From assembly GCA_046563655.1 (NCBI GenBank), contig CM102290.1:5270001-5334000 (forward strand): a stretch of DNA of 64,000 nucleotides, read 5' to 3'. The position numbers and the translations under genes were made by a program. This DNA is from Yuukianura sp. NJ FZ-2021 (lineage: Eukaryota). Each line of letters begins with the position of its first letter. Position 1 is the stretch's first letter. This document shows, in pieces, positions 5,842 through 45,911 of this stretch. The notes beneath the pieces were generated by a model. That model was not told the origin of the DNA. It ran no database searches and saw only the letters and a list, made by a program, of their open reading frames with translations.

Positions 5842-8800
5842 TTCTTTGTTCAAATAAAGTTTGACTTTTGAAATTCCCCAGGTCTCCAAAGTGAATCAAA
5901 ATCTTTTCGTTAAAGATAAAGAAGATTTTGTTGTACAAAAAAAAAGAAGTTTTGGGGAGATTTAAGTAAAAAGTGACATTTTCACTTTCCCTGATTCCAG
6001 TTTTCTAAAAAGAATGGATTAGAGAAGACTGAAATTTTAAAAAGCGGATGTCAATCCTTTGCCGTTTCTTTCATTTTTTCCATCTTGATTTTTTTGCTAT
6101 AAACGCCCAGTTAGTCTTTCTTCTTTGCAAAAAAAAATACTTTAAACAAGTTTTTTTGCAAAGTTTTTTTTTAAAGTTGTTGCTTAAAGTGTTCTAAAAA
6201 TGGAAGATGGAATTATGGCTTGTGCTGTATTTTTTTTGAAGTGAAGCTTTTTTCCAATAACATTTTGGATGGGAAAATTCAAATTTATTGAATCAAGTAT
6301 CCGTGACGCGGGAAGGAATTTGTATGGAATAGAAAAAAAAAGTTTTGCAGCGGAAAATTCCAAATTCTTGAAAAGAAAAAGTAGCAAGAGACATGTAGTA
6401 TGGCTTTTGCAATAAAAACACCGTTTTGTACAGAGCGGTTTTTTTAAAAGTACAAAACGAAACCGCAACAAAAATCGATCAGAATTGGAAAGTTCTGCGA
6501 GTTATCTATTCATCCCATAAGAAAAAGTTTTTTTTGAAAAACATTTTTGGTTTTGGGTTTTCAAAAAATAGCTCGGTACTTGTTATTTGTAGATGGATGG
6601 TGCGGAACGAGGCGGGAGACTACAATGTATCCATGGTTGCAAGTCAAAGTGTAAATAGATGGAAGGAACTTGAGCGTTTGAATTCAGCGACTGAAGCGAT
6701 GATGACTGGAACAAGTCAATATTTTATTCATGTATGCAGCATGTCCCGCTACAGAAACTCTACAATGTATTAAACCAGAAACGGGCTTCTCGAATAACTT
6801 TTCTTTTGTCAAATTCAAAAAATTGTAATTTTCAAAAATTTCCGAATTTCCCTTGATCCTGTCCTGAACTAAGAACTAAATGTGAGTTTAAAAAAAACAA
6901 TGATCTGTGAAAATGTCGCGGAAAAAAGTTGAAACTGAAAGTGAAAAGTTTTTTTTGAAAATCAGAAAACTTACAACGGGATGATGCGAAGTGTTGTTCA
7001 AAATTTCCAGTTTGAAAGTAAAACTTTCAAATCCAATTTAAAAATTTCGGAACGAGGTGTCACTTCCAATTAGTTCTTTTCAAATGTCAAATCTTGGCAA
7101 AAAGTGTCAAAGTCCGAATTGAAACTAATTTTTTGACAGTTGGGGCTAGATTAACGTCTCTGTAAAAGTGGCGGTAGTTTTGATTTCAATTAACCACAAT
7201 GTGAATCAATCAATTGCTATGCAAGGTTACAAGAAGGCAAAATTAATTTTAAAAACAATTTTGTCAAAACCCGAATTTTCAAAAAACTTCAAAATTAACA
7301 TTTTGCATTTTGTTGTTTGAGCTTAACCGCTTGAGTTCAGAGAAGCTTCATGTTACCACAAAACCTCAACCAAACATCATCGTTCTACTTTTTCAAAAAA
7401 AGGCGGTATCGATTTCTAGTTTCAATTCAAAATTTTTTACCGCTCCTTATGCACTTATTACTTTGAATTTTTGAAATGAGATTTTCCCGGACATATTTGT
7501 TCTATTCTCATTTGAGGTAAAAGAAAAGCCCGTAAAGTTCAAAATATCGAAAGAAAGAAAATGGTAGGAAGTTTGGTGGGAGTTGCATAGGAATGGAATT
7601 TGTGAAATTTAGATCAGAATCAAAGATGGACAGATATAAGATGAAATGGATAGGAAATGTATATTGCAGAACACGTAGACACTCTAGCTCCGACCATATT
7701 AAATTCCTCCAAGTCCATGCACAATTCAATGTTATCTTTCCATCGACACAGGAATTCTACGCCTCACTTCGACCAAATCCACATGCAACACACTCTTTCA
7801 ACCCTTAACTTCTTCCAGAACGACTCCAAATTTTATGTGGTCACAACTGTTCAACTTCTGCCGAAATTCAACCATTTTTATGCAACTTCACACTCCTTTA
7901 ACAAAAACGACCAAAATATTACACAAATACGTGTCAAAATGTTTCAAAAAACCGAAAAACTAGTGTATTCAAAATTTTGGAAAAGTATGATTTAATAGAA
8001 ACTGTTTTTATTTCAATCAACTCCGTTCATTCTTTGCAGTAGCATTGATTTTTCTTCGTTTTTCAAATTTTCATGCATATTACCGAAAGACTTGTTCAAG
8101 CTGAATTTGTTTGGATTCAAAAAAAAGAAGAAAAGAAGAATAGAATTCAAATTCTGAAATCTAATTTCATTTTTACAGCATCCCGCGTCAACTTTTGAAT
8201 CTTGGAGGTGAACACGTTGTTTTGTAAAGGCATGATTGAATAGAGAAAGAGAGAGAAAGTGTGAGAAAAGGTGTGAAAAGTGAGTGTCCTTGTCACCTTT
8301 GGTTGGAATCTCTGGTTTTAGAAGCAAGAATTGCAAGGAACGAGTCTTTTTTCATTTTGAGAGGTCAAATGAATCAAGGCGCGATGAAAGATGAGTTTGC
8401 GACTTGAGGAGATTTGAAATTCCTCATCCCACTGGAACCTATTCTGCTATGGTTTCAAGGTCAAGGTCACCCGGAGACTATCTTCTAATGCTATTTTCTT
8501 CGCTGCACTTTCGCTTTGCAAGGAAGATGACTTACGGCCACTTTCTCCTCCAAATTGCTTTTTCTGAAGATGGACCACGTCTTGTTTTCACGCCTTTCTC
8601 ATTATTACGCTCTTCGCAAGCTTTTTTCCATTTGAGAAAACCACTTTTTCTGGTCTATAAAAACTATTTTTTTATTTAGCCAAAATTAGTAATTAGGATT
8701 TCAAAAATCCCGCTCTCTCCTTTGATTTATTTTCGTGCTACGCACTTCTGGCGCGTACTAAAATCCCAGCAAGGATTTAATAACTTTTGTCGTTGGAAGT

Positions 8801-9057
8801 TTTGGAAAAAGGAGCTTTTCTCAAAGTAAAAAACATCACTTTGTTTTAAATTTCTGTTTTTAGTATAAAAAGCGCGTGTTTCCAAACATCAAATGGGACA
8901 AAGTGAGGAAAGGGCTTTAGTCTTCTCGTTCTCATCAAAGTTGAAGTAAAGATGAAGCGATTTACTCAGCCCCGTTTCAGAGACATGCAAAAGGCTAATG
9001 ACGATAATGAGCTTTCCATTACAATTTAATCCGCTCGTTCCATACATCCCTTTTTAT

Positions 9058-9296
9058 CAAGGTTTGTATACAAGAAAATAGTTCTTCCCTTCAACAGGTT
9101 AGGCAATAACCCGAGCTTTTTAAAATTTGTTAAAAAATTAGCAGAACTAGGTTTACACCGTGCCTTTCTATGGCGATGATTTATATGTAGTCAAATGGGA
9201 TTGGAGGAAAAAGTTGTTCGGGGCGAGATTTTTTTAAAACAGGACTTATTGCTTAACCTGTTAAAGGAAAACTAATTCGTTGCTATAGGAAACTTA
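9058..9296 (+). mobile_element. CAAGG-terminated MITE, copy A (divergent subfamily)
   Basis: Starts CAAGGTTTGT and has inverted AACAGGTT/AACCTGTT subterminal motifs. Flanked by CCTTTTTAT / CCATTTTAT (8/9 match). Confidence 0.7.
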
Positions 9297-9350
9297 CCAT
9301 TTTATCTTCTGAAAACGGCTCATGCGCAATAAAAAATTGGCGTTTCCTGA

Positions 9351-9559
9351 CACCAGTTGCCCAGGATTTTCAAAAATCCGAAACGGATGTGCTGAATGTG
9401 CAACTTTTGCGTTTAACATGCATTTGTAAAGCAAGAAAAAAAAGTACGTATTTCCTGTACTTTATGTACAAAATGAAACGTAAGAAGTGAAAACTATAGT
9501 TAATGAGAAGGTTATTTTAGAAACCGAAAGTACATTTGACCGCCGGAGGGCAACTGGTG
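9351..9559. mobile_element. Small MITE
   Basis: 12-bp inverted termini CACCAGTTGCCC ... GGGCAACTGGTG. Confidence 0.5.
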
Positions 9560-10702
9560 AAATTGTAGAAGAATTAAGTCGTAATGCTTAGGTTGGCATA
9601 CGTTTAACTTTGTTATTTTAAGGATTAAGGGTACTTTTCAATTAAGTTTTCAAAAGGCGACTTTCACTTTTGCACTTTTCAGCTTAAAATGGAAATGAAA
9701 GGTGAAAGTTGATGTGCCTAACGTTTGTGGTACAAAGTTAGGTTATCTCTGTATTCACATAGGTTAGGTTATGCCACTTAAATAGGAATCGCTTTTAGTC
9801 AAACGACGCCACTTCCGAAATAGACCAAAAAAGTAATTTTGTTTGAGATGAAGAAGGAAATAACCCCAGCATCAAAGCAAACCACTCTAACTCTCTCCCG
9901 CCCTCTTCCAATAATTGCGTTTCATTCTCACTACCATTACTACTGACCGACTTTTCCAAAAACACAATTCAAAATCACTTTTTTCAAAAAAAAAAAAAAA
10001 AAAAGAAAACTGAAAATGTGAAGCTCTTTTCACTATTTCAGAAAAAGGGAAACACAAGGAAATGTTTGTTGCAAAACTTTTTTTTAACGGGAAAGTCGTT
10101 TAAGTTTTTTGTCCATTCTAGGTTATGACAAAGTCATTTTTAATTTAAAATGTAAAAGGTTATAGTTAATTTTTTCTCCTGTGCAGTTTTTGATTAGTTT
10201 TTTGCAGCGTCGCCCCTAGCAACGTCTTAGATTGAAGTAATTTCCATCTAGATTTTAGGCCGAGTTTGGAATTTTGCTTGAATTGTTCTCTAAAATTGCA
10301 AATTCAAAGAAAAGAGTTGTTTTAAGTTTTAATAAGTCAGTTAAAATTATTATGATACAAATGAGTTAAATTTAGTAAAAGCAAAAAAAGTAAAAGCAAA
10401 AAAGTGAAGTGGTGAAAGTTGAACGAAAAGGAGCCAAGGTAACAGTAGCTCAGCAGCAACATTGCGTTCGGAAAAAAATTGAAATTTTGGCTATAAATCA
10501 AAAGGAAACTTAGATTTTGAACATTTTTACAAATATTTTTCAAAATTTTTAAGTCTCACAGTAAATTGACTCTTTTGGAGGAATTGAGGGTTTCTCTTAG
10601 TAATAAGCTGAATCATCCTTGACGCAGTACACCGCCTCTGGAACAAACTCCAATTTTCAAATTCAATTTCTTTGATGACTCAAATTAAAATTGTGTTAAA
10701 TA

Positions 10703-11427
10703 TTAATTAATTAACATGTAATTAGAAGTACGTGGAGCGAAGATCCTGTGTCGCGTGTGTGTGACTTTCCTCCTCGGGCTGTAAACATACATGGTCACAA
10801 AGAAGAAAAGCGAGAAGATAGAAAACATGGCGGGCACAATGAAGGCGGCCAGGGCCTGACCAACCGTCTGCCCAACGGATAGGCTGCTTGCATCAACATC
10901 GCCAGACAAGGTTCCTTGACAACAAAAAATGAATTTTCTTTAACAGGTTGAGTACTACCTCGCTTGCTGACAAAAAAATGAAAAATACAAGAATTAGTAC
11001 CAATGCATAAAATTGGTACCAATTCGTATGTAAAATTAAAAAAATTCCGCTATATTGTTATGACTACGATATCATGAAATGAAAGACACTTTTTTTTTGC
11101 AAAATCGAAAAAACATGAGGTATTACTCAACCTGTTAAAGAAAATCAAAGTCAACAAACCTTGATCCCCAGAGGACTCGGCAGCCCACTTAATCACGTAA
11201 GTATCCGACATATCCGCCGTTTCGACTGACCCTACATTAGTCTCAATGTCGTCCCTACAACAAATTCAAATGCAACAAAGTTTAAGGTCAAAGGTCAAAG
11301 GTCAAAGGTCAAGGTCAACTTACATCTGAATGATTTCTTGTTCCGTTTCTTCTATGCTAATCAATCCTCTTGCGGAGGTCACCGCAGTCAACAGCGACGT
11401 AACAATCACAACTCTCATGATATTCAT
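10703..11427 (-). CDS. Orphan 136-aa type I membrane protein (exons 11427-11324, 11254-11160, 10914-10703)
   Basis: Spliced ORF MNIMRVVIVTSLLTAVTSARGLISIEETEQEIIQM-DDIETNVGSVETADMSDTYVIKWAAESSGDQG-TLSGDVDASSLSVGQTVGQALAAFIVPAMFSIFSLFFFVTMYVYSPRRKVTHTRHRIFAPRTSNYMLIN*. It has a signal-peptide-like start, acidic ectodomain, one TM helix and a basic tail. Intron 1 is GTAAGT...TTGTAG in phase 2, and all phases are consistent. Confidence 0.7.
10907..11163 (-). mobile_element. CAAGG-terminated MITE, copy B, inserted in a coding exon; forms predicted intron 11159-10915
   Basis: Termini CAAGGTT...AACCTTG with subterminal IR TTTTCTTTAACAGGTTGAGTA. Flanking duplication ATCGCCAGA / ATCCCCAGA. Closely similar to the copies at 45013 and 48099. 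Confidence 0.9.
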
Positions 11428-11820
11428 TTTTCAAAAAATCGATTTCTAAAAATCAAAACAAAAATTAAAAAAAAACTTAAAAGTCAATATCAATCAAAAC
11501 CAAAAAAAGAAAGAATTGCGTTTTGAAATTTAAAATATTAAAATACATGTAACAGCTTACAAAATAAGTTGAAAATGGAGGTTACTAATTGCAATACGCT
11601 ATTAATTAACTAAGTTAATTAAGTAATTAAGATGTTAGTGTGATTGTTGTGCTTTCGGTGAGCGTTGAGTTACTTGTGACTTCATCGGGAGTGGAAACAG
11701 CGTCATTTAAATTAAATCCGAGACACATAATAGACTTTGCCACTTTAATTTCGCCTTCTTAAGACTCCCCCTCCTCCCACATCCAATTGACCAAGTGACG
11801 TTTGACCTTCAAAAGGTCAA

Positions 11821-11833
11821 AGGTCAATGACCT
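11821..11833. promoter_or_regulatory. Perfect IR1 nuclear-receptor element AGGTCAATGACCT (EcR/USP consensus)
   Basis: Exact palindrome ~400 bp upstream of the orphan membrane gene ATG, with extra AGGTCA/TGACCT half-sites directly adjacent. Confidence 0.4.
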
Positions 11834-13384
11834 CTTCATAATTTTAACTAACTGCATCTTATAGCTTTTAGCATGAGCAGTTAAAAAGATGGAGTGTTTA
11901 AAGTGCTACCTAGGGAACCTGATTTTGTTTGCAGGGCACGCATTAACGTTTTTAATGCAAAACTCATGTCATTTTGCAAAAAAAATACCCTCAGTATATA
12001 AGTGCCATCATGAATGACCTTGTGAGTAAGATCACAGCAAAATTATCAAAAAGAAAACTCAAGGAACGCAGAGGGGCCTTAAGGGCCTCGTTCAAAAAAA
12101 TTCAGAACACGTTTTTCATCTCATGCAGAACAAGCGGAGACATTAATGTTTCTCCTTTGTCTTTTAAAATTCAGATTTTATTAGACTTAGAAAATGCATT
12201 TACAAGGCCACATTTCACGAGTGAAAGCTTCCGCCCAAATCAGTGGTTTAGACATTCCACTTTCTCCAAAATTTCAAAAATTTTAACAATTTGATATATT
12301 AAAAATTGGAAAGAGGATTTTCTGTAACCAAGAAACCCAAAAAATTCAACAAATTCCGATTTTTTAGGTTCTCAACTTTTATGATTTTGTTTTTCTTACT
12401 TTTTTTTATGTCCCTCGTAGATTGTTTAAAGTTTACTAATTTCATAGTGGTTTTTTCGAAGAATTGCTTACTTTTTTTTGTGAATTGATCGTACCACCGC
12501 ACTTTATCATATTTTACGACCCAGACAGAAATCGGATGCTTCATATTAACGTTGTTCCAGCTCTCAAACAGAACACTTTGGCTTCGGTCCAAAAGTCTCC
12601 AAATTCAATTGGTTTCTAGATAAATTAATGTCTTTTCCTCCCTCTCCCAAATCACTTTACATGCCATACCAAAAATGCAAAGTTTTCATAATTTCAATTA
12701 AGTTTTCATAATTCAATCACAAGAACTCTAATTTTCAAAATTGAACAAATTTTGAAACACAGGAGTCAGTTACTTGCAGTTAAAATGTCCATATGCAACG
12801 CATCAGCACGGGGCAAAAATACATAAAAGTTGAAACATCCAATAAAAAGTTTTATAGAATATCCCACATTCCTGTTTTTTTCAAAATCTGCTCAACCTAT
12901 TCAAATTTCTGGTTAGGTTAACCTTAACGTAGCATTAGATTTTCCTGTAGAACTGAAGAGAATCGAAGAAAAGAGTTATTTGGAGTTTACAAAAGAAAGC
13001 TAGGGCTGTCACACTAGGGAAATTGTGGAACCAGGAGAGAAAGTTGTTTTGCAAAAGTTTCAAGGTTCATCAGATCCAGGAAAAGTGAACACCATGGTCC
13101 AAAAGTTGTACTTTCTCAAGAGAAAGTTGGTTTTCGTGAAAGTCGAACCTTGAGCTTACTACATCTGAAACACGGTGTACATTCCAAACATGTCTCACCT
13201 CCACAAGAGATCATCCATTTCCAATTTCGTACAACAACCGAGCACTCTAAATCATACCTGACAAAGCCTACTATAATTCAATAGTTTTTGAACAAAGAGA
13301 AAGAGCAGGAAAATTCAAATTCCACAAAACCCAATTTTCTAGATAGAATCTTTACACATTTTAATTTCTGATATACCTTTGACC

Positions 13385-13652
13385 AAAGGTTGATAAACAA
13401 AGAAATACTTTTTCTTTAATACGTTAGGCAGTAACTCGAGTTCTGAATCTTTTGATCAAAATTTCCGAAAAAAAACCTTGAGATAATGAAAATTGTTAAG
13501 AAAATTAAAAAAAAATTTGACAACTGAAACTGGTTTTTTCTAATTCATAAACAAAACTGGTTCCATTTTTTGTTTTCTTGGGGGATTTTTTTAAAGGTCG
13601 AGTTATTGCCTAGCCTGTTAAAGGAAAACTATTTCGTTGTCAAGACACCTTG
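13385..13652 (+). mobile_element. CAAGG-type MITE, copy C (same subfamily as copy A)
   Basis: AAAGGTT...CACCTTG flanked by a perfect 8-bp duplication CTTTGACC. Shares the TTAGGCA.TAAC.CGAG block with copy A. Confidence 0.75.
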
Positions 13653-14408
13653 CTTTGACCTCTCACTCTCACACACATCACCAGACACAGCTCACATTAA
13701 TCCAAATCCTCCCGCTCTTTTTTCTGTTCAAAATTAACGACTCGTGGGAACAAGTTTATGTCAACTGCGGAAATATTTTAGAGTCTCAAAAAAAAGTCAG
13801 AGGCACAATCACGTCCCAAATTCATTTCTCTTCATTTCACATCAAATTCTTCTCAATCCCGCCACAAATCTGACCTTTGACATTTCCACTTCCACATTTC
13901 GCATATCAGGTCAAGTCTCAACTCCACGCACTGCCACTCCAATTGATCTAAAAAAAAAGTTAAAAAAAAGTAAATTTTTAAAGCCCATCCTCTTGATCTC
14001 TGACAAATTCAAATCGACGCTACCCCGAAAACACGTATTTTGCTGTCTCTGAAAAAGTGCTAAAAGTTCAAAACCAAGTTTAGGCAAAGTCGACATGACT
14101 CTGCCAAGGGCCCTCTTCCGAAGTGTCTATCAAAGGGGCCCTTGGAAAATGTCCCTGGAGAATGTAGTTGTAACAACTCTACATAACATGTAAGGCATAT
14201 GACATAAATTTATTTAACGAATTCTGTCTACTTACCAAACCACTGCTAATGTTACAACACCTAGTACAAATTTTGTACAACAAAACTAGTAATTTGAAAC
14301 AACAGAAATATACAGCAACAACAGGATTTTACAACGTTTTTTTGTTAGTGAGTTGTAACAGAACAGAAAAAAGATGTTATGCTATTCTGTAGTGGTTTTA
14401 GAAGAGAA

Positions 14409-14947
14409 TAGAGACCTTGCGAAGAACGTATTCTGATTCTAGAAAAGTACTCTAGCTACAATATAATATTGTCGCAGAATGTTCATGAAGTTGCGAAAAA
14501 AAGTATTCTAGGTTTGGATTGTAAAGTGGAACATTCCTAATAACCAATTTAAGGCTCAAATTTTGAATCGACGGCAATTTTGATTAGTAAAACGTAATAA
14601 AGTAGTTTTAGTTCTTGATTAGAAACAGAAAATAGCCGTGCTGCAGCAATTGGGAGTAGAAATATGGCTAAGATAATTAATTAATTAAATAGTTAAGTTC
14701 AAGGTTAAGTTAGTTAATTTCGATAGTGATAATGGCAAAACTTAAGTTTCAAGATTGAAATTGACAGCCCGTCTCGAAGTTCAACTTGTATGCGTTTCTG
14801 CTTTGAAATATTCTTCCCACAGTCAGAATCCGTTCCGGAGACGGATTTTCAAATCCCGACAAAAGTATTGTAAAACGGATTCTAGATCCGTCTCCTACAA
14901 GCCACAATACGTTTCTAGAGTCAGAATACGATTTCGCAAGGTCTCTA
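14409..14947. mobile_element. hAT-like MITE
   Basis: TAGAGACCTTGCGAA..CGTATTCTGA.TCTAGA at the left end is inverted at the right end; no TSD retained. Confidence 0.6.
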
Positions 14948-16115: not shown

Positions 16116-19100
16116 CTACAAATAGTACAGCTTCCGTTCCATCGTGTCCTTCGGCTCCTTTCCTTCCAAATGCTGACCGACCAGCATGGCCAACTTGTGT
16201 GCGTACTAGAAACAAAGTGAATTAGAAAATCTAAAAACCCACTTACTTAAAAAATCTAAAAATGCAGCGCCTCATGGACTAAAAAGCGAAATGCTAGTTA
16301 TACCTGGCACATGGCTGGAACACGAACTGTCCCGGGCCAGTTGAAGTACATGAAACTGGTGACATAGGCCAGCCGTTGGACCAAATCTGGCTTCCTTTCG
16401 CCCGAGTCCTCCAGCACTACAAAGTGCGATGGTGAAACAGTGCCCTAAAAAATTAACATAACGTTGCAAACCGGTATTCAAACTAAAGTTCAAACTAAAT
16501 ACTTCAAGCATAAAAGGTTGCTTACTGCACGAACTAGCTGTGAAACCAAGAAAAAGTCGTAGAGACATCGCCGAGTGATGGTGTGATCCATGATGGTGCC
16601 GGGGTTAGGATTGTCCAGTTGGTGCTGCGGCTAAGATTGGAAACATAAATTCACCGTTAAATTGAACTTAATTAACAGCAAAAAATGAAAATTTTCAAAC
16701 AATGAAAATGAAAATTCATTTCAAAATTCAACAAAGACGATACCTTGATCAAGAAGAGTCGCTCGTTGATCCTCTTTTGAACCACGACATACAAGATCTT
16801 CGGTTTCGGTTTGCACACGTTCTCAATCACTCCTGTCAGTGCCGGAAGTTCACCCTCTTGAACAGTACCAAGCTGACCGTCACTTACTCCGTCCCGAAAG
16901 ATGACAATCCGATCAGGGTAGCGATTATTGCACTAGTACAAACAAACCAATTAGTATTCAAGGTTAAGTTACAAAAGATGTGTTGTGTTTTATAAGAAAA
17001 TAATTTAAAATCACAACAAATTGAAAAAAAATGGCTCACAAAGTAAAAAGCTTGAAGAGCTTGGCCGAAGACAGCTTTGATGGCGTCTTGCGACTCCTGA
17101 CCGGTTCCTTGCATGACGATTCGAGAGTAGTACTCAGTACAGTAGTTATTCAAGCTCGCAACTAGAGCCATTACACTTCCTGATTTTGCTCCTGGAGAAT
17201 GGTGAGTGTCAACACCAACGAACATGATAAGTTCCTTCTAAAAAATCCAAAAACAAACACAGGCAGAAAAGCGCTCAATGTCGGATTCCTGAAATCCAAA
17301 GTATGGATTCCAAACTTCAAATATACAAAAAAAAAGTATGCCGCTTACCAGTGGAATGTTGAGAGCCCAAATTGATCCGCCCAGCTTGCAGTTGATTTGA
17401 AGTGCCACTTTTTGCATAACTGGTCGCATCTTACGTTCATTTGAAAGTGTTTTGGCCAAGATCACTTGACTCGGAATAGGTCTTTCGATTAGAGCGTATC
17501 GCTTCACAGCAGCATAAAAATCATCTCTTGCTGCAGGCAGAATGACCATGATAAACTGAGTCTAAAAAACGACAAAGGAGAAGAAAAAAGTATAAAAATA
17601 CGGAAAGCAGTATTTTAGTTAACCACGTAACAAGTTTCAATCTTACGTTGGCATTGCTCTCAACAGACGAACGAATGATCTGGCGCATGTCGGCTGCACT
17701 TGCAGGTCTGCCAGCGCTGTTTACCAATATGACGATCTGAGGCTGTGGCCCAAACTGGATTCCGAGCGGACCGCAAACTTGTCGGTAATTTGCCAGCATC
17801 TTGTCAGCTTTGTCTCTGTCCTGGTTGCTACAGAAAATGATCCATTGCTTCAACGCAACCTTGAACAGAAAACAAGAAACGAAACGGTTAGAAAAACGAA
17901 ACATGAACCACAACCGAAATGGATTCAAATAGTGTCATTACCGGTGCGTAGCACTTGTTGCTTGTAGCTTCTCGAGTAAAGTCTGGATTTGCACATTTCA
18001 TGGAGAAAGTGGCAAATTGAAGCGTCGGTCCAGTGATGATTCTTCCGCGATCAATCAAGCATTGAGGTTCCAAACTGACACCCCACGGTGCCAAAATAGC
18101 TTGAGCCTTCTCGCTCTCTGCAATCAACAAAAAGATAAATTTAATTTAATAATAATTTAAATCTTAGTATCACACCCAACTTAGAAAACCTAATAGTCAA
18201 ATCATCTCAATTTCTTACCTCTCATTGCCTTTAGAAAGTCCATGATGTCCTTGTGACGTTGCATTGGCGTGGTACGTGAAAGCTGAATCAAGTCCCGCAT
18301 CAACATTTGGTTCGTACGCATTTCCTCCGTCAGTCCACTTTGGTAGCAAAATTCCGGAATGAGCGACACGCAGTAATAGTCACCCTACACAAAACAAAAA
18401 AAAAATTGGCATCAAGCAACTTTTTCTTCTAAATCTCAACTTGATTTGTTTGGAACTTACACGAGGATCGTTCTTCCTGTACTTGATTCGGCTGATGAGC
18501 AATGGCTGGCTCAAATCCGTGATCGTCATAGCATGTTGTGCAGTAAAGTAGTCTGTGTACGATACCTGAAAACCAAAATCCATTTCAAAACAAAGCACAG
18601 TAGCAAAAACTTCACCCAAGTAACCGTCTTGTCCTTTTTCTGGAAAGTATGCGTTGGATTTTGGTCCCATGCCACCTCGTCCACGCCATAATGCTTATTG
18701 TTGTATCTGGTGATGACGGAGTGACCACAAACGATTTTACCAAAATTGTCCTTATACCTCACAGGATCCTTTTGCTTGAGAGTATTCCTAAACCAATTGA
18801 ATACGAATGTGTTTCATTATCCTATTCCATAACTTGATACTTACAATCTTGAAATTAAAGGAAAAACGTTTACAGCAAGCTTAGAACAGTGTCCTGCCGC
18901 ATCACTCGAGAAGTTGTGTTCAAACAGATCATTAGACCTCCTTCGTAGTTGTCGATAGCAGTAACGTATCCAGGCCACACCTCCAAGCTGTATCAGGAAA
19001 AATAAAAACTTACATTAACATTTTGAGACTTATCACATTTTAATTTGTTAGTTTACCACTTACTTATGCTGCTTCAAGACAGTGACACCAACCGGATTAT

Positions 19101-20591
19101 AAAAGTCTTTCTTGATCTCAGTGAAGTTCAAAGCAACCATCACTTTCCGGAAAAGCACGTTATAAAATTGTTTCTTCTGTTCCAAAGTTGTCTTGACCGG
19201 CTTCAACCGAATTGTCACTGGCTTTGATGGGTCATTGGGATTCGTAGTTGAGAGAATCAAATGCTAAAAAAAAACAAGAGTTCATCAGTAAAAGAGAGAT
19301 GGATAAGTAAAAAAATTGGCCTTATACGCTTACCTCGGGGCCCAATTCAACAGGCAAGTACAACTTCATTCCGTCGAAGGTCCAGTTAGTTCCCAAATCA
19401 GCCGACAGGCTGCTAATAACCTTCCTACGTACTCCAGTTTCTTCCAAATGTGGTTCGAATATCGTTGTGTACTCGAACAGTCCAAAATCAACTGCCACAT
19501 TGATTCGCAAAAAGTTGCTCATCAAACGAACCCTGAGATTATACAAAATTAGTTTAATTTTTAAACCAATTCTTAACATTATCCTACAATTATCAATGAC
19601 TAAACTTACGGTTCGCCCTTTTCCCCGTGAAGTGTTGCAGGTTGATCTGGTTCAATGTCGCCTTCACCACCACCAGCAGCAGCTTGTTGTGGTTGTTCAG
19701 CCTGTGCGGGTTGTTCAGCCTGTGCGGGTTGTTGTGCCTCAGCTTGAGCTGCAGCTCCAGCCTCCGGTTCATCTCGTCGTCCAACTCCCACTGATGCAGC
19801 AGGCTGAGAGCTTACTGCCATAGATTGTCCAGAGTGTGTAGTCCTATGATATACAAAGCAGTTAATTTATAGAAGTTCATTACTGATTTTTAGAAAAAGA
19901 GAACAAGAAAACTCACTTGGAAGGTGTGTGGGCACTGACACTGCTAAAAGTGGAGGATCCAGATCGCGGAGTATCGGCAACAGTGCTTACGCCAACAGTT
20001 GTGGTTACAACAGACGGAGCTGGAGCTGGCAACTCCATTGATTGCTGCTGAAATCCGGCTTCTTCTGGCGGAGCGGCTGAGAGTCCAAGTGGAGCTGATG
20101 CAGCAACAGCAGTTGTTGCCCTTCCTCGGCCACGCCCGGCAATCCCTCTTGGCTGAACATCTTCTGCAGCAACGCTCAAACCGGAAAGGCTTAATTGCAC
20201 CAAGGATAAATCGTCACCACCAGCATTAGCCTCTGGTGTAATAGGGTCGACAAGTCCTAGAATTTGTTCTGCAGTGCTGGTCACGGTGATGCCTCTTCCT
20301 ACAACCAGAAATCAAGTATTAATTAGTTAATTTAAATTCAAGGTTTGGTTTACCTTCGACTTTTAGTAAAAACAGTTTACCTCGTCCGAGTGCTGGACTA
20401 ATAGCCGCTTCACTCGTACTTGCTCCCAGTCCTCTGCCTCTTCCTCTTCCAATTTGCCCAGCAGGAACTGGTTCCGTCTGATCATGCCCAGGAGATGGTG
20501 GCTGCGGCGGAACCACCGGAGGTACTCCAAGCGGTTCTGCTGGTTGTTGAGGCTGGGGTTGGAGCCCTCTCCCACGGCCTCGTCCCGTCAT
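16116..20591 (-). CDS. AGO3: PIWI-clade Argonaute, Ago3-like (multi-exon)
   Basis: N-terminal GRGRG repeats; QHK-LEVWPGYVTAIDNYEGGL; PAZ (VITRYNNKHYGVDEVAWDQNP); KVALQINCKLGG; PIWI catalytic motifs VGVD, GQE, FRDGVSDGQL and YAHKL; ends LYYL*. RDGVSDGQ and HKLEVWPGYVTA favour Ago3 over Piwi/Aub. Confidence 0.9.
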
Positions 20592-34322: not shown

Positions 34323-34768
34323 ACTCATCGCCACAAGCTACAAATCAAACAACTCATCACATTTAAACATAAGTTGACAAAATTAAACCAATGAGCATCA
34401 AGTAATGTTTCTCATCGAGAGGAATTACTGAATTTGAAAAATTTAAATTTTTAGTAAATCTTTGTTAAAATGAAAAATGGAAACAGCAAATAAATCTACA
34501 TTGAAAAAAAAATTAGTGAAGCGGAGAGTTGAATTCTTATGTGCTGGAAAGCGTCAAAGAAGTTTAAGTTGACATTGAATTGAAACAATGGAAAAGTAAT
34601 TGAGTTGAGGTCGTGTGGATTAGCGTCATGTGAACACCGTTTGTTCCGTACAATGAACGTCATTTTTACGAGAACCTTTTCATCCATGCGCTTATTCTCT
34701 TCTTCCATTTTAACCAGGGTCGATTAGTCCTCTGTTGCTTTTGGTTCCACGTCTTGCTCAAGTCAACC

Positions 34769-37374
34769 ATGAAAATTTCAACCAAATTTCGTCTCCTAGC
34801 AGCCATTTTTTTAAGCGTAAGAACAAAATTTCCAGCGTTTTCATTACCAAAAACCCTCAAAATTACAACAAATTTTGTTTCAAAAACTAGATTTGTGGGT
34901 GGACCAATGGGGCGGCGCCTAGAGGAAATTCAAAGACTTTCGAATGTCCATCATCCGGTTTGTTTCCAGTTGTTGGGGACTGCACAAAGTATTACCGTTG
35001 CCTCTTCGCTGGAATGCCTCCGCTGACAACCCTCCGCTGTCCCGATGGCGAACAATTTGAAAGTTCAATCCAAAAATGCGTTTCAGGAAATGGAAGGAGT
35101 TGTCCAGATCCAAATAGTCCAACCAAAGGTAAATTAAATACTGCTTTTAATTAGTTTTCCACTAAAATTTTAATTGAAACTTAATTAAATTAAGTATGTT
35201 TTGTATCAAATGGAAGCTGAAAGAAAAACGGAGTGTGCTGGGAATGGATACAAAGCTGATGCGAGTTCTAAGGAGTGGTACATCAAGTGTGAGGGTGGAG
35301 TGGCCACCAGAATGCGCTGCTTCCCACCAGGATCCACATACAACCCAGCGACTGAACAGTGTCGAAATTCAGCCGCTCCAAGTAAATTTTTCCCACGAAC
35401 TTTTAGTTTTGTAAATTTAAGTTTTTTTTTGTTCCCACAGAACCTATGGTCGAAAAGAAGCCCAGTGAAAAGGGCGGCCGCAAAGGCAGTGCCGTCAAAG
35501 GGTCGGAAGAAAGTTCTGAAAAGTCAAAGAAAAAGAATTCTGATGAAAATTCAGAGGGAAAGAGTTTGGAAGAAAATAGTTTTGAAGCGTCTGAAGAAGA
35601 GAGCTCTGAAGAAAAGTCCGTAGAAAAAAGTGGAGAGAAAACAAAGGAAGAGAGCTCAGCTGAATTAAATAAAAAGAGTTCTGAAGAAAACCTGGCAAAG
35701 GAAAAGAGTTCCGAAGAATCGAACAAAAAGAGTTCCGAAAAGTCCAAGGACAAGAGTTCTGACGAATCTAACGAAAAGAGTTCTAAAAAGTCCAAAGAAA
35801 AGAGTTCGGAAGAATCGAACAAAAAGAGTTCTGAGGAATCTAAGGAAAAGAGTTCTGAAGAATCTAAGGAAAAGGGTTCTGATGAATCTAAGGGAAAGAG
35901 TTCTAAAAAACCCAAAGAAAAGAGTTCGGAAGAATCAAAAGAAAAAAGCTCTGAAGAGTCCAAGAAAAAGAGTTCGGAAGAATCTAACGAAAAGGGTTCT
36001 AAAGAGTCCAAAGGAAAGAGTTCTGAAGGATCAAAGGAAAAGAGTTCTGGAGAGTCAAAAGAGAAGAGTTCTGAAAGATCAAAAGAAATGAGTTCTGAAG
36101 GATCAAATGAGAAGAGTTCTGAAGGATCAAAAGAGAAGAGTTCTGGAGAATCGAAAGAGAAGAGTTCTGAAAGATCAAAAGAAAAGAGTTCTGAAAGATC
36201 AAATGAGAAGAGTTCTGAAGGATCAAAAGAGAAGAGTTCTGGAGAATCGAAAGAGAAGAGTTCTGAAGGATCAAAAGAGAAGAGTTCTGAAGGATCAAAA
36301 GAGAAGAGTACTGAAGGATCAAATGAGAAGAGTTCCGAAGGATCAAATGAGAAGAGTTCTGATGGATCAAATGAGAAGAGTTCTGATGGATCAAATGAAA
36401 AGAGTTCTGATGGATCAAACGAGAAGAGTTCTGATGAATCTAAAGAGAAGAATCCCGAAGGATCAAGAGAGGGGAGTTCGGAATCGTCCAAAGCGAGTTC
36501 TGCAAAGCCTGCTAGCGCGAATTCTTCTCCCCAGACTGCAGCTGCCTTGCTAACCCGGGGTGAAGGAAAGCAGGAAGCTGCTCCAACGGGTAAAGACGAA
36601 CAGAAAGACCAGCGTAACGTTGAAGCAATTGCTGTGAGTAACGGTGAAAAGTCAGAGGCAGAAGCCAGAGTCAGCGGAGAAAAGAGTTCTGCAGCCAGCC
36701 GAGCAACTGGAGGGGACAGTCGAGCAGCGTCCATGGCCGAAGGAAACAACGCACGCGCCAACAGTACTGCGTCCGGTTAGTTTTTTAGGCCAGCGTTTCT
36801 AAAACTAACGAAAAACTTTCGATACTGACCTAAGTTTCTTGTTTTGTTGACATAAACAGGGTTCAGAAGTTCAACTCTTAGCTTCGCCCAAGGAAAGAAG
36901 GCCGAGTAAGCTTCTCAATGTCAAAGATTAACTCAAATTTTAAATTTTAAACTCAAAATTTTTAAACTTGTTAGAGCAACTTCCAATACTAAAGGAAAGG
37001 AGGGTTATGCCGCTTCGTCTTCAGTCGGAGATGGGTCTTCGGCGGCTGCAAAGAGTGATGGAGAACAATCACAGGTTTGGATAACCGTTTGTTGCAATTA
37101 AGAGTCAAGGAAATCCAACTACAAATAAGTTTACTTTCAATAGTCATCGGCCATTTCCACTGGAAAGGGCACAAAGGCTAACAGTACATCACGAGGTAAG
37201 GGAGCTGCATCCAAGAGCTACGCACAAGGTGAGAATTCTGCTGCTACGAGTTTGAGTTCAGGCCAACAGGCTCAATCCTACGCAGAGACTTCTGGTCAGA
37301 ATTCAAGAGCCTCCGCTACTGCAAACTCTGACGGCGGAGATAACGGAGCATCAGACGAGGAAGCAGATGAATAA
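34769..37374 (+). CDS. Secreted protein: peritrophin-A/CBM14 domain(s) + Ser/Glu/Lys repeat + 11-residue Gly/Ala/Ser repeat (about 7 exons)
   Basis: Signal peptide MKISTKFRLLAAIFLS|ICGWTNG; 6-Cys CBM14 (CPSSGLFPVVGDCTKYYRC...CPDGEQF....QKC......C); a second 4-Cys module. Exons continue in phase past the ORF-track stop to ...SDEEADE*. Confidence 0.85.
35700..36480 (+). repeat. Coding 24-bp tandem repeat (GAGAAGAGTTCTGAAGGATCAAAA-like; EKSSEGSK)
   Basis: About 30 units directly visible; they become more homogeneous toward the 3' end. Confidence 0.95.
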
Positions 37375-37785: not shown

Positions 37786-40700
37786 TCAAAATTTAAGTGT
37801 CGCTTCCTTGGCAAGTCCCAGTTTCCTTAGAGCATGTCGAATGTCCTCGTACACAGAGTTATCCTCAACCGTAGGCGGGATCTAAAAGTTTCAAAATTTC
37901 AAATTATCGTTTGACCTCTCCTCAACGTCAAAGTTTTAAATTTTAGTCAAACCTGACAAGTTTTGTTGCTGGCCAGTTCAGACAAAGATTTTCGAGGAGT
38001 TTTGCCAGACCGAGTTCGTGGAAGTGCTGGAACGGCGACCGCAAGCTTGAAAGCTGCCACGGGCCCCATCTCATCCCTAACCATTGTGACGAGGTCTGCA
38101 CTAATTTCCTTCTCTTCCTTCGTAGCACCTACGACATAACAAACAACTTAGGCGCCAATTTTATAATGTTCTAAGTATTTTAACCTGGTAAATGTTTAAA
38201 ATACTAAAAAATTTAAAATTAAAAAACGTCAAACTAAATCAGAATTTAAGTAGCGAAAGTGCTACTTTATGTTTTTCTCCGAGTGTGTCTGTCTGTCCGT
38301 CTGCCAATAATTTGATACCTTGTTTTATGACGTAGAGACAAAGGGGGACCTGCCCTTTGCCCTTGTGTGTCACCCCGACCACTACAGCATCAGTCACTTC
38401 TGGATGTTCCAAAACAATCTCTTCAAGCGCAGACGTGGAAATCCTGTGGCCAGCGACATTGATGACGTCATCAACCCTGGCCATCACATACAAGAACCCG
38501 TTTTCATCAAGGTAGCCAGCATCCATTGTGTCATAGTAGCCCTATAAAACACGAAACCATTACTCAGGACATTCAACAGTATTATTCCATTTAATTCTAT
38601 TAGCATTACACCAATATCCTAAGTCAATTCAACGATTATGTGCCTCGTGTTTGTTGTTGAATTGGACACAGTTGACCATGTCATTCACTCAACTAAAGTC
38701 CATTGTCGTAAACTTCTTTACTTTGTGTGTAAATTAAACGAGGGTAAACAAGGAGTGGAAGTCGTAAAGGAGATGACACGACTCTTGGCACATTCAGAAC
38801 AAATAACAATGACCATAAACTTTTAGTCATTGTGTTACCTGGAAGTTGTGGAAGTACTGGGCAGCAAACAGCTCGTCAGACTTGAAAAGTGTGTCCATGA
38901 AGCCCGGTGGCATCGGATGCTTACAGACGACGCGCCCCAACTCACCCACTTTACAAGGTCTCCCATTCTCCTGCAGAACTTGTACTAAAATTCAATCAAT
39001 CCAAAGAGGTTTCAGTACGAATTGACTTAATTTGAATCCTAAGGATAAGTACTACTGGATACCTTGGTACCCCGGTACCGGCAGGCCACAACTTCCCTCG
39101 GGCTGTTTGTAGTTGTGTTCCAAACCGACACAAGTAGCTGAAATGGGGTGGCCCGTTTCCGTTTGCCACCAATTGTCCAAAACAGGAACCTGTTTTGTTA
39201 CTTTTTGTTAGAAAGTTTTGAAATGACTCCACGACAGACGATTAATGCTAAGAATGTTGTGGGTGAAGGGAGAAAGTAAGTACATTGAAGGCTTCCGTGG
39301 TCCAAGTTCTCGTTTCATTGTCACAGTGTTCTCCAGCTACACACAAGTACCGTAGTCTGGAAAGACAAAACTAATGTAAAATTGGGAATAAACTTTGTAA
39401 TCCCTGGAATGTTCAAGATTAAACTCTCACGTGGGTGTTTTGAATTTGGATCTAAGTATTTTGTCAGGATCTTCCTTCCGAATGGCGCGAAGTGCAGAGG
39501 GTGCCGTAAACATTGCATTCACTCCATGCTCACTCACAACTCTGCAAATTAGAAATCAACATTAAACGGAATGGGAAGTCATAAAACACAAAGAGGCTCC
39601 ACAAAGACAAAAAGGCTCCGCTGGAATACATTCCAGCGGAGCCTTTTTGTCTTTTTGGTTACCACCAACCTGTAGAACTGCCCAGCATCCGGCGTACCGA
39701 CAGGTTTCCCTTCGTAAAGCACCGTCGTTAGGCGAGACAGGAGTGGACCGTAGCAAATGTACGAGTGACCTACGACCCACCCAAGGTCAGAAGCTCCCCA
39801 CCAAATGTCGCCAGGATCCATGTCGAAAATGGCTTTGAACGTCCAGGGAAGGACAACAGCATGTCCACCAGCAGATCGCACAACGCCCTTGGGGAATCCT
39901 AAGCACAAAATCCTTGGATTTTGATTGGTTGAGTGAAATCCAATGAAAGGTGGATGTTGGGTTAATTCTAACCTAACCTGTTGTGCCAGAGGTGTAGAGA
40001 ATGTAGAGTGGATGATGAGAGGGGAGTGGAATGCAGTCGTGACCTTTCAACCTTCGTCCAACCACTTCTTCCCAGTCCAGATCCCTTCCAGGCTTGAGCG
40101 TCGCTGGAGTGTGAGTTGGTCGTTGGTAAATGATGCAGTGGACATTCGTTGGAAGGTCGGCTAGCCGAATGGCTTCGTCTAGAATCGGCTTGTACCTGAA
40201 AAAAAAACAAAAACAAAACAAATTAATTGAAAAAGTTAATTACTTTCAGTGTCAAGGTTGATATTTAAGTCTCTGCAGCGGTGCCAAGTCATAAACCATG
40301 GCGCTATTTTTTTTTAAATTTGAAATCCCTTGATCCTACAGTCTTTTCAAATTATAAATGAGAGCGTGGTATTTTTAAGTTGCAGTGACTTTTGGAAGTG
40401 TAATTTAAAAAGGAGCTTTCACATTAAGCATTCCCTTTTCACAACAACACTTTTGGAAAGTGACTTTCTCCGGGACGTGTCACTTAGAAACATTTTGGAT
40501 CTTTGGAGGGAAACAGACATCAAAGGACGACAGTGTGAAATGATAAACTAATTTCTCAAATTATGACTCTAAACACAAAAACATTTCCAGCGACATCGTT
40601 TTTTGCATAATGGAGTCAGACACTTGTCGCAGCATTTAGAATTCGAACAGTCTCTTGTCGTAGTCATTTACCAAACAGTTCTGGTGGGCTCAATTCCACA

Positions 40701-42217
40701 ACTGGCAGACAAAATGACTTTGGGCTGAGTATGTCGGATTCTGGACGCAAGTTCTTTGGCCGCAAATCCACCGAATACTACGGAATGAACAGCTCCAATT
40801 CTAGCACAAGCAAGCATCCCAAAAATCGTCTCCGGAATCATCGGCATGTAAATGATCACACGATCTCCCGCTTCAACTCCCAGAGAGACCAATTGACCCG
40901 CCAGCTTCGACACCTACAAAGTCACACAAACAAGTTAGATACATAGTAGTTAAGGGTTTGACATTTTGAGTACCCCACCCGCCCTTATTTTCAGTACCCC
41001 ACCCGCCCTTGCCCTCCCCCCACTACCCTTCTAGCCACACTGGAACTGTAATTACGATCTAAGCAAACATTGGGTGTGTTTTCGCGCCAAAAACTAATAA
41101 AGATGCTCTCTACTACAAAGATACCGCGGGACATCTCCAGCGACATTTTTTTTGAAAAGAAGAGAACACGTACGTAGTTGGGATTCAGGGAAGCGACCAG
41201 CGGGGGAACTTTTATGAATAAGGCTACCCCAAACACAGAACAAACCTTCTCCAGTTTCAATAAAAGTTCCAGGAAAACTTTGTTGTCGAAGGCTCTTGTT
41301 CATTAGGGGGGAAAGAATTGTACGGGATACTACGTTCCAGATCTAATTCACACCAATAGAATCTTCTACCGTGTGACTTTAGTAGGTAGGAACTTTCAAA
41401 TAGTAACTTTGAAATTGTGAATATAAACTGGAGCAAGCCTGGAAGTTACTAATTTCCTGTCACTCATTAAAATGAGATTAATTCGGCTAGAGACAAGGGA
41501 GGTGTAGACCACTGGAGTTCTCTTGGGGTTGGGCTCAGTAGATCAGCTGGATTACTATTATGTTATATGAATTACATGTAACAAATTTATATCAATGGAT
41601 TTGACTAACTGACGTTCATGAAACGTACCGCGTCCAGAGTCTGTCGATACGTGTATTTTTTAACTGTCTGAGTAACGGGGCTGTCGTAGATGATGGCCGT
41701 CTGGTTCCCGTCGTGTCCCTCGACATGCCGATCCAAAGCATTGTAACAAACGTTCAGCTCCCCACCGGGAAACCTTCAAAAGATCAATCTCATTCCATTA
41801 ACGTTTCGTGAACGTTCATTCTTCCAAGTAACAGTCAGTGATCTTAGGTCACTGACATGTACGTACAATGTCAAGTTCCTCACCACTTTGTCCTTGGATA
41901 CGCCTGCGTCTGCAACACTCGATCGTACTTTTTGAACCACGTGATTTGATTGGCTGCTTGTTCCCAAAACTCTTCTGGATCATCTACGGACTTTTTGTAC
42001 GCTTCTTCATACGCCGACGGACAACCCCTAAACAATTTCAAAAAATTCAAAAAGAAAAACGTTCAAAAATCGTAAAATTTCCTGTTTGTATCACTGCCAC
42101 CGGAAGGACTTACGTGTGAGCCGATTTGGCATGGACGGAAGTGGCCGTATGGATGAAATGGCGCCTTTTCACAAACCGCGCCAATTTTGAAATCCTTTGT
42201 TGTGCTGAAGGCCACAT
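37786..42217 (-). CDS. ACSS3: Acyl-CoA synthetase short-chain family member 3 (propionyl-CoA synthetase-like), mitochondrial
   Basis: Arg-rich transit-like start [134 protein letters not shown]. Confidence 0.93.
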
Positions 42218-44000: not shown

Positions 44001-44746
44001 CGTAACCAGGCATTAACGGACGGTCACTAACGGCCCGATATACTAACGGACGGTCACGAACGGACGTTCACTAACGGACGGTCCCCAACGGACGTTCACT
44101 AACGGACGGTCACCAACGGACGGGCACTAACGGACAGTCACCAATGGACACATACTCTAATGGACACTTACTCTAACGGACGGTCACTAATGGACATTGA
44201 CACCTTGTTTCAGTCACTGAAAATTTACAAATTTTTGAAACGCAGCGACCAAGGTGGGTAAACAAGCAATTGTTGATTGCTACAAGGCTACAATTATTGT
44301 AGCAATTCAATTGGTTGCTATAGCAACCTTGCGCAGCGACAATCAAGTCGGCTCTGAATTCAAGTTGGCAACATTATTTACTAATTAATTCAGTAAATCT
44401 GCTTTAATTTTCCCGCGCCGAAGGCGCGGTGTTAGGTTATAAAAATTGACAGTAGTGATTAGGTTGTAGGTTAGGTTAATTAACTTAGGCTATTGCCGCT
44501 AGGTTCAAAAATCAGTTAATTTTCAGTGACTGAAGCAACGTGTGTCAATGTCCATTAGTGACCGTGTCCACTAGAGTAAGTGTCCATTAGAGTATGTGTC
44601 CATTGGTGACCGTCCGTTGGTGCCCGTCCGTTGGTGACCGTCCGTTAGTGAACGTCCGTTGGGGACCGTCCGTTAGTGACCGTCCGTTCGTGACCGTCCG
44701 TTAGTATATCGGGCCGTTAGTGACCGTCCGTTCGAGTCCGGGAATC
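44001..44746. mobile_element. Foldback-like MITE with ~210-bp inverted arms built of ~14-bp units (AACGGACGGTCACT)
   Basis: Arms ~44015-44225 and ~44518-44732 are near-perfect reverse complements; flanked by direct repeat AGTAAAGG. Confidence 0.9.
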
Positions 44747-45012
44747 AGTAAAGGTAAAGTACATACGTGAAGGAAAGTCTAAAACTTTCCATTTGTACTT
44801 TTGGAGTGAAAGTGAGCATCTTTTGAATTTGAAGTTCAAATTTTAGTACCATAACATTAGCTTAGCTTACTCTAACATTTTGGCTCATGGGAACTTTCAC
44901 CATGCCACCAGACAAAAGGAGCAGAGAAAGTTCTGTTTCATTTGGTCCATGGAATTCCTTTTCCTGCTAAGCAGAGAATGTTTCCACCTGTAGCACACAG
45001 AACACGCAATTT

Positions 45013-45296
45013 CAAGGTTCCTTGACAACGAAAAGTTAATTTTCTTAAACAGGTTGGGTACTACCTCACTTGTTGACAAAAAAAAAACGAAAAAGAAAAA
45101 AAATTAGTATCAAATTAGTACCAATCCAAAAAAAAAAAAAAATGGTACCAATTCTTATGCAAAATTTAAAAAAAATTAACTGTATTGTGATGACTACGAT
45201 GCCTTGAAATGAAAAGGTACTTTTTTGCAAAATCAAAAAAAAAAAACATCAGGTATTACTCAACCTGTTAAAGAAAATCAAAGTCAACAAACCTTG
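45013..45296 (-). mobile_element. CAAGG-terminated MITE, copy D (myosuppressin intron, splice signals antisense to host)
   Basis: Both termini closely match copy B (CAAGGTTCCTTGACAAC ... AAAGTCAACAAACCTTG); no TSD visible. Confidence 0.9.
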
Positions 45297-45911
45297 AGAG
45301 AGACTTCGTCACAACGTAATTCATTGAGCCGAATGTGCTGGATGTGCTGGGGATGCTGCCTGGTGACGAGGGTGGTTCCGCGAAGTGTATGTTGTGGACA
45401 ATCCCAGAGTCACGTAACATCTTTGAATCACTTTGGAGATGAAGATGATGATGATGTTTGTGAAGTGGGTGGGAAGTGACGCACTGTTGACATCAATCAT
45501 TGACTAACCTAGGCTCAAGTGTCTTAATTACTCCTAATGCATAACAGAAATACCTCTCGAAGTGACGATCAGTTCCAGTTGACACTGTCACTGGCCTTCC
45601 CCAAGTCAATCACGCCAGGTTTTTAGCGTGGAGTTCACTTAACACTCAAATCGAAACATAAACAGAGACGGAAGCGATCCGGACAAAAAATTTCTCTTTT
45701 CCTCTCTTTCTCCGCACCAAAAAAGTTTGCTCTTTATCTAGTTAACTAGTTATCTTAGTTATTTTAGTTATTTAGTTATCTTGATCTTAAAATCAGTGAA
45801 AGTCCGGAAGTTCCGGAAACCTTTGAAAAAGTTTAACCCTGTTTGTTTTGACTTGAAAATTGAAATATTTCAAGTTCAAATTTTGAATTGAAAGTTCTGT
45901 TTTTGAACAGA

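Follow-up and report, generated by a model that had tools for sequence, protein, structure and literature searches.

A 257-bp miniature inverted-repeat transposable element (MITE) interrupts the second and last coding exon of a small minus-strand gene in the stretch of DNA studied here, 64,000 nucleotides (nt) of contig CM102290.1 of Yuukianura sp. NJ FZ-2021 (assembly GCA_046563655.1; hereafter the window, with positions counted from its first letter). That this element, which we call copy A, is a non-autonomous DNA transposon with terminal inverted repeats (TIRs) inserted in a coding exon is certain. Judging from the sequence, we propose that it may be spliced at its own ends and would then form a new, in-frame, transposon-made intron. 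This is the best single explanation of the locus, and we regard its chance of being correct as about even.

The mechanism that we propose starts from a non-autonomous cut-and-paste MITE of ~260-285 bp, with an 8-9-bp target-site duplication, which inserted in that exon of an orphan gene encoding a putative signal-peptide, single-pass membrane protein. Its inverted ends by chance hold AAG/GTTTGT on the 5' side and a U-rich tract with CAAG/G on the 3' side (a slash within a motif marks the splice junction here and below). The spliceosome would use both end sites and remove 245 of the 257 bases, and the protein would gain seven residues in the linker before its membrane helix and remain otherwise intact. 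We infer that the host gene is expressed and that these two splice sites are used.

The element, its host and the putative splice sites

The host model encodes a protein of 136 amino acids (aa), running from the ATG at 11427 to the stop TAA at 10705-10703, with one ordinary intron and the putative new intron. Copy A is one of five copies of its family in the 64 kb, 239-284 bp long (three full, A, B and C; two diverged, D and E), which were found by BLAST and profile search. The parts of the locus, in the order of the gene, are as follows:

11324-11427, minus strand: host exon 1, with the ATG at 11427 and a hydrophobic, signal-like N-terminus; coding score 0.30 bits/codon, best of 3 frames
11255-11323, minus strand: host intron 1, 69 nt, GTAAGT...TTGTAG, canonical and frame-keeping
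11160-11254, minus strand: host exon 2, up to the putative donor; coding score 0.46 bits/codon, best of 3 frames
11164-11172, minus strand: upstream copy of the target-site duplication, TCTGGGGAT, Ser-Gly-Asp, with an 8/9 match to 10898-10906
10907-11163, minus strand: copy A, miniature TIR transposon, 257 bp, CAAGG...CCTTG, delimited by full-length alignment with copies B and C
11150-11163, minus strand: 5' terminal inverted repeat, a 14-nt arm that holds the putative donor CAAG/GTTTGT
10915-11159, minus strand: putative new intron, 245 nt, GT..AG, wholly within the element; its removal would give an open 136-codon frame
10933-10961, minus strand: subterminal inverted repeat, 3' arm of 29 nt, 97% complementary to its partner at 11117-11145
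10907-10920, minus strand: 3' terminal inverted repeat, a 14-nt arm that holds the putative acceptor GTCAAG/GAACCTTG
10898-10906, minus strand: downstream copy of the target-site duplication, TCTGGCGAT, Ser-Gly-Asp, with one synonymous difference from the upstream copy
10703-10914, minus strand: host exon 3, with the membrane helix, basic tail and TAA; coding score 0.21 bits/codon

Coding scores were computed with a table of 2403 codons, taken from exons of the same window that were supported by homology or Pfam or formed long open reading frames (ORFs). The 8 of the 19 training pieces whose scores were printed gave 0.15-0.53 bits/codon on this table, which they themselves had trained. Most of host intron 1 (11280-11312) is made up by a GACCTTT-type microsatellite.

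Copy A has inverted repeats, duplications that differ among the family members, short length, several copies and no coding capacity, as is typical of a MITE. Its 14-nt terminal arms are 86% complementary, and the same ends are present in copies B and C, which are 85-86% identical to copy A over the ungapped columns of the full-length alignment. The GC content is 0.30 in the element and 0.45-0.53 in its flanks, and all three frames of the element score negative for coding (at most -0.17 bits/codon). Its 24-nt 5' end occurs three times in the window, compared with no occurrence in 100 shuffles. The predicted RNA fold is a single long hairpin with a minimum free energy of -87.8 kcal/mol (shuffle mean -51.3; z = -8.45). 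The flanks match at 8/9 positions at k = 9 only, other values of k from 6 to 11 giving at most 3/7 or 4/11, and the 9-nt duplication is equally readable as 8 nt plus one extra 3' base. The original prediction had described a 257-bp minus-strand element that splits the exon with a 9-nt duplication, and such an element is indeed present, the two duplicates agreeing at 8/9 positions. Translation in the gene frame confirmed that both flank copies read Ser-Gly-Asp and differ only synonymously, and the finding of TIRs, a duplication and further copies supported the assignment to a non-autonomous TIR transposon in a coding exon.

To score the putative splice sites, we built a position weight matrix (PWM) from 17 introns of the window, 14 of them refined from tblastn joins of ACSS3, SDA1 and Piwi homologues and three placed by eye (ACSS3 intron 1, host intron 1 and the C2CD5 intron that contains copy C). 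The putative donor CAAG/GTTTGT, whose first intron base is 11159, scored 7.5 bits (training donors, 3.8-10.8), which is the top value among the local GTs in 11254-10800, where 19 scored above 0, and lies in the top 1.3% of the 7362 GTs of the window. The putative acceptor TTGTCAAG/GAACCTTG, whose last intron base is 10915, scored 9.3 bits (training acceptors, 6.1-18.6); it ranks first of 14 local AGs (11159-10800) and within the uppermost 1.0% of all 7278 in the window. The claim that a candidate donor and acceptor lie at the ends of the element stands, and on the 17-intron matrix they are the best-scoring local GT and AG. T at donor position +3 occurs in 3 of the 17 introns (GTTAGG, GTTGGT and GTTTGA), and the acceptors comprise 11 TAG, 5 CAG and 1 AAG; therefore, the GTTTGT donor and the AAG acceptor are unusual yet have precedents in the same 64 kb. 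The length of 245 nt falls inside the sampled range of 69-715 nt. Read in antisense, the element has a weaker terminal donor (4.6 bits), and its only good acceptor lies 40 nt from the start, so that it is predicted to be spliceable as a unit in one orientation only. As to the sample itself, all three donors with T at +3 come from the nine sampled ACSS3 introns (37882-41883); for an arthropod, the donor is unusually relaxed and the acceptor TAG-rich, in what is a small sample.

Splicing from 11159 to 10915 would remove 245 of the 257 element bases and leave 4 + 8 element bases and the 9-nt duplicate, that is, 21 nt. The leftover is 21 rather than 20 nt because the duplication of copy A is 9 rather than 8 nt. 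The predicted spliced product is an open frame of 136 codons that reads SGD-QGTL-SGD, a gain of QGTLSGD, and the best donor and the best acceptor are together a frame-keeping pair. If the element were retained, translation would stop at a TAG at 11052 after 102 codons. Both the in-frame arithmetic with its seven added codons and the stop on retention had been predicted, and both were reproduced by translation. The in-frame TAG at 11052 was made by a C-to-T change private to copy A.

When the element and one duplicate are deleted, a continuous open frame of 129 codons results, 7 fewer than in the spliced frame, and it follows that exons 2 and 3 were formerly one exon. This bears on another reading, namely that the intron is older than the element and that the MITE landed in it. 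Copy C shows that members of the family do land in introns. At the host locus, however, the two putative splice sites are part of the terminal repeats of the element itself, no bases separate the element from the duplicate on either side, and the frame left after the deletion is open and contains no intron remnant. We rejected this reading as highly improbable.

Points against splicing and rival readings

A number of observations weigh against the proposal that the element is spliced at its own ends. With 17 introns only, the matrix is a small and noisy one. Among the 193 local GT-AG pairs, 33 also keep the frame open, and therefore frame preservation alone is weak evidence. The usual 8-bp duplication, as in copies C and D, would leave 12 + 8 = 20 nt and shift the frame, and a 9-nt duplication is maybe not rare, given copy E, so that the match of the leftover to the frame is a weaker argument. 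The AG of a TTAAAG (10938) falls downstream of the branch-like TACTCAAC (10954-10947) and upstream of the acceptor at 10915. Both splice sites are paired in the hairpin stem, which could hinder splicing as easily as help it. Only one of the five copies in the window coincides with a putative intron, and copy C lies antisense inside a larger one, the 436-nt intron 48462-48027 of the minus-strand C2CD5-like gene. We also identified a competing site within the element:

10967-10999, minus strand: competing 3' splice site, with TACTAAT (10999-10993), a pyrimidine run and GTCAG/; PWM score 6.1 bits

This textbook-looking acceptor, TTTTTTTGTCAG/ at 10967, has its TACTAAT branch-like motif 26 nt upstream and was absent from the original prediction. 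Joined to the donor at 11159, it would produce a frameshift and an early stop. The G at 10967 is private to copy A, copies B and C reading GTCAAC.

In a rival reading, the insertion broke the gene, either through retention of the element, giving a 102-aa secreted stub, or through frameshifting splicing to 10967. The locus would then be a pseudogene of recent origin, or a loss-of-function allele that is tolerated or still segregating, with an intact downstream frame that has not yet decayed. We judge this to be a substantial minority possibility. The acceptor at 10967 has the better branch-point match, and its AG was created by a private change of copy A; the host is an orphan, and the DNA around it is rich in AT and in repeats, with three members of the family in 4.6 kb; the usual 8-bp duplication would give no frame rescue. 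On the other hand, joining the top-scoring donor to the top-scoring acceptor would keep the frame, the sole difference between the duplicates is synonymous, and the 136-codon frame, its start codon and intron 1 are intact despite ~6.7% divergence and 4 indel runs in the element.

The last of these points was examined by simulating the survival of the frame in a dead gene of 411 nt, on the assumption that the private divergence of 6.7% post-dates the insertion. The whole frame survived in 29% of simulations with substitutions only, in 6% with 1 indel per 257 nt and in 0.1% with 4 indels per 257 nt. For exon 3 alone the corresponding values were 61%, 27% and 2.5%, the first two of which are in keeping with a broken gene. 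Taken together, ORF survival modestly favours maintenance of the gene. The divergence also bears on the claim that the insertion is recent, which we consider doubtful: copy A carries 17 private substitutions over 254 aligned columns (~6.7%) and 4 private indel runs. Three of the 17 substitutions fall within the 17 nt before the acceptor, where ~1 is expected; all three are changes to pyrimidines, and with them the acceptor score is 9.3 bits in copy A, up from 6.5 in copy B. This enrichment is no more than suggestive of later tuning of the pyrimidine tract, and a C-to-T bias could explain two of the three changes. The changes that enrich the tract fall in 10924-10931. A further point against our proposal is that the private substitutions may predate the insertion and have been inherited from a different source copy; the arguments from tuning and from ORF survival are therefore weaker.

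The host itself is a weak point of the proposal as well. The 69-aa product of exon 3 has 0 matches at E<=0.001 among 1.84 billion representatives, and host expression and conservation are therefore putative. A short query needs a high score at that E-value bar, so that moderately diverged orthologues could be missed. No host paralogue was found in the window by tblastn (best other match, E=0.15). The lack of a homologue could mean that there is no real gene, the three 'exons' being a chance open frame and the element an intergenic MITE copy. In the same direction, no Pfam family was found on the ORF 10798-11049, which covers most of exon 3, and the Atlas returned unnamed clusters only, plus a 0.93 match to a family carried by 32% of members that we took as chance. 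We nevertheless consider the absence of a gene improbable. Codon-usage scores are positive and best in the proposed frame for all three exons, and in 98.4% of 2000 random noncoding windows even the best of the six frames scores below exon 3. Islands of high GC coincide with the exons (0.41-0.52, compared with 0.31 around them), and intron 1 is canonical, frame-keeping and of a short length typical for the species. The predicted product has a coherent layout, with a hydrophobic, signal-like N-terminus, a short acidic or Ser/Gly-rich stretch, strongly hydrophobic residues 83-111 as the helix, and a basic tail. Atlas recognition of the host was 2571, above the mark of 2300, which 9 of 100 shuffled sequences reached. 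As regards RNA genes, the one Rfam match in 10500-11600 scored 25 bits against a threshold of 117 bits and was taken as chance, and no tRNA was found in 8000-14500.

The element family and known introner systems

Besides copy A, the family is represented in the window by four copies:

45013-45296, minus strand: copy B, 284 bp, without a target-site duplication; found by BLAST and profile search
48099-48375, plus strand: copy C, 277 bp, with a perfect 8-bp duplication, GTTGAGAC; inside a C2CD5-like intron
13385-13652, plus strand: copy D, a diverged relative; its 8-bp duplication, CTTTGACC, is perfect
9058-9296, plus strand: copy E, a diverged relative, with a duplication of 9 nt (8/9), or of 8 nt (7/8) if its end is 9297

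Over 254 shared columns, copies A, B and C have 17, 14 and 16 private substitutions, respectively, and so diverge from one another in a star-like manner. Copies D and E sit in AT-rich DNA, and B, D and E have no clear coding context. Copies E, A and D are clustered in 4.6 kb (9058-13652) of the AT-rich first quarter; the divergence of D and E from A is too great for recent local hops. Outside the window, 0 matches of the 23-nt 5' end of the element were found in the metagenome, viral and genome contigs scanned, and 0 matches of both termini at a 225-255-nt gap in the metagenome contigs scanned.

Copy B was tried as a second example of an intron, having an identical donor. The flanking ORF gave no clear coding signal (0.11 bits/codon, compared with 0.08 in another frame), and there is no duplication; the case was left uncertain. 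Upstream of copy B, a GC-rich, ATG-started open frame runs into the donor CAAG/GTTTGT (flanks 45297-45420 and 44897-45012), and two splice models leave a short frame open, of 83 or 72 aa. This flanking frame may represent a small gene, or else a 5' exon belonging to ACSS3, which lies 2.8 kb downstream.

Transposons of the hAT superfamily make 8-bp duplications and have YARNG termini; P elements make 7-8-bp duplications, have CANRG termini and encode a THAP/P transposase. The CAAGG termini of copy A fit what we take to be the terminal consensus of hAT and of P equally. The duplication measures 8 bp in two copies (C and D) and 9, or 8 plus one base, in two (A and E). That two other copies have perfect 8-bp duplications, a length that would frameshift at the host locus, had been predicted and proved correct (8/8 at 48099 and at 13385); copy E also fits a 9-nt duplication, and therefore the duplication length of the family is not strictly 8. 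A P-element-like origin had been proposed as well, which could not be established: the hAT consensus fits as well, and no transposase partner was found in the window. A check for an autonomous partner had been suggested; run on the ORFs of the window, it found no transposase domain in the 150 longest of 222 ORFs of at least 70 aa. A literature search on the terminal motifs yielded nothing usable. P-element-like is accordingly one of two equal guesses, hAT and P.

Ordinary arthropod MITEs of hAT or P type are short, have TIRs and CA-type termini, mostly make 8-bp duplications, form hairpins and lie in introns and intergenic DNA. Copies B-E are no different from these, and only copy A is special, in its exon position and its usable splice signals. 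A standard introner insertion keeps the frame, whereas one by this family would leave 20 nt, and 21 only with a 9-nt duplication. Because an 8-bp duplication would leave 20 nt, the family shows no tuning to intron making. The description of the family as introner-capable was not supported by the copies in the window, in view of the single copy at a putative intron and the frameshift that an 8-bp duplication would cause. As a whole, the family resembles an ordinary MITE dispersed through non-coding DNA rather than one specialised for intron making. It is doubtful, and in our estimate improbable, that this family is a working intron-maker in springtails and the first in a terrestrial hexapod, with both splice sites in its terminal repeats and exonic insertions surviving when the leftover is 21 nt, through a 9-nt duplication or an added base. 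Were it so, many copies across the genome would be precise introns peculiar to the lineage.

The introners of the alga Aureococcus anophagefferens were reportedly first described by Huff et al. in 2016. According to Gozashti et al. 2022 (PMC9860276), both splice sites are contained in these elements, and the spliced mRNA gains 12 nt, of which 4 come from the element and 8 from the duplication. They resemble the case of copy A in that the element is of DNA-transposon type and carries both sites, and in that a few element bases and the duplicate are left and whole codons are added (12 nt or 4 aa there, 21 nt or 7 aa here). According to the same paper (PMC9860276), their leftover is a multiple of three for every standard insertion and hundreds of their copies are introns, whereas here the standard leftover is 20 nt and one of five copies is a candidate. 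Moreover, splicing is demonstrated in that alga (PMC9860276), whereas here it is predicted, in an animal. The Aureococcus type, with both sites in the element and added codons, is the closest analogue.

In Micromonas pusilla, as set out in the review PMC11282704, introner elements take one splice site from the element and make the other in a 3-nt duplication, so that the mRNA is unchanged. These elements, too, are MITE-like, with TIRs and a target-site duplication, and are removed there as spliceosomal introns (PMC11282704); unlike them, copy A has both putative sites inside the element, and the host mRNA would lengthen. The same review cites Henriet et al. 2019 for MITE-derived, non-canonical introns in the tunicate Fritillaria borealis. 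In that animal, as in our proposal, MITE insertions in genes are neutralised by splicing, and inverted ends can join the intron ends; its non-GT-AG ends need a changed spliceosome (PMC11282704), whereas the ends of the putative intron in copy A are GT-AG and within the normal range of the genome's sites.

Transposon-made introns are an established phenomenon, known chiefly from algae, fungi, dinoflagellates and a number of aquatic animals (PMC9860276; PMC12130899). For the springtails Allacma fusca, Folsomia candida and Orchesella cincta, the number of introner families listed in Dataset S1 of the 2025 paper is 0 (PMC12130899). In a supplementary file of the 2022 paper (PMC9860276), the rows of Folsomia candida and Orchesella cincta are all zeros, in columns whose meaning is not established. 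Our search for literature on introners or intron gain in Collembola, judged by title or abstract, found nothing on the subject. The mechanism proposed for copy A is a known one, and its occurrence here could be the first in a lineage of hexapods; the case rests on a single locus. If true, transposon-made introns would extend to a soil-dwelling hexapod lineage in which two large screens found none. The case would offer a datable insertion with both sites in inverted repeats, a seven-residue protein footprint and possible later tuning of the pyrimidine tract, and it would show a step before a specialised introner family, namely an ordinary MITE with ends that are spliceable by chance. If copy A is not spliced in this way, the locus is simply a gene hit by a transposon.

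Genomic context of the window

The window has 32-46% GC in 2-kb windows and short GT-AG introns. Its first 15 kb are AT-rich and gave no protein-family matches. The remainder contains the following genes:

16119-19534, minus strand: Piwi/Aubergine-like gene, containing PAZ and Piwi domains and divided by many short introns; identity to the nearest proteins found only 25-55%
~23 kb, minus strand: tetraspanin
~26 kb, plus strand: Snf7
34634-36777, plus strand: chitin-binding Ser/Glu/Lys-rich repeat protein, two CBM_14 exons followed by a 457-codon repeat ORF
37.8-42.2 kb, minus strand: ACSS3
~48-59 kb, minus strand: C2CD5
61.8-64 kb, plus strand: SDA1

The top match of the SDA1 exon is a metagenome protein (80%), and the closest named one is from Allacma fusca (77% identity over 87% of the query), a member of the Collembola (Symphypleona); identity to insects and other springtails is ~69-71%. 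On this basis, we regard the source of the DNA as related to springtails. The gene at 34634-36777 is peritrophin- or mucin-like, and its repeats give spurious Pfam matches in other frames (phage gp5 trimerisation domain and cornifin). In the interval from copy B to ACSS3, at 44100-44700, a TVTNGR-like peptide recurs in short open frames of both strands and points to a tandem DNA repeat.

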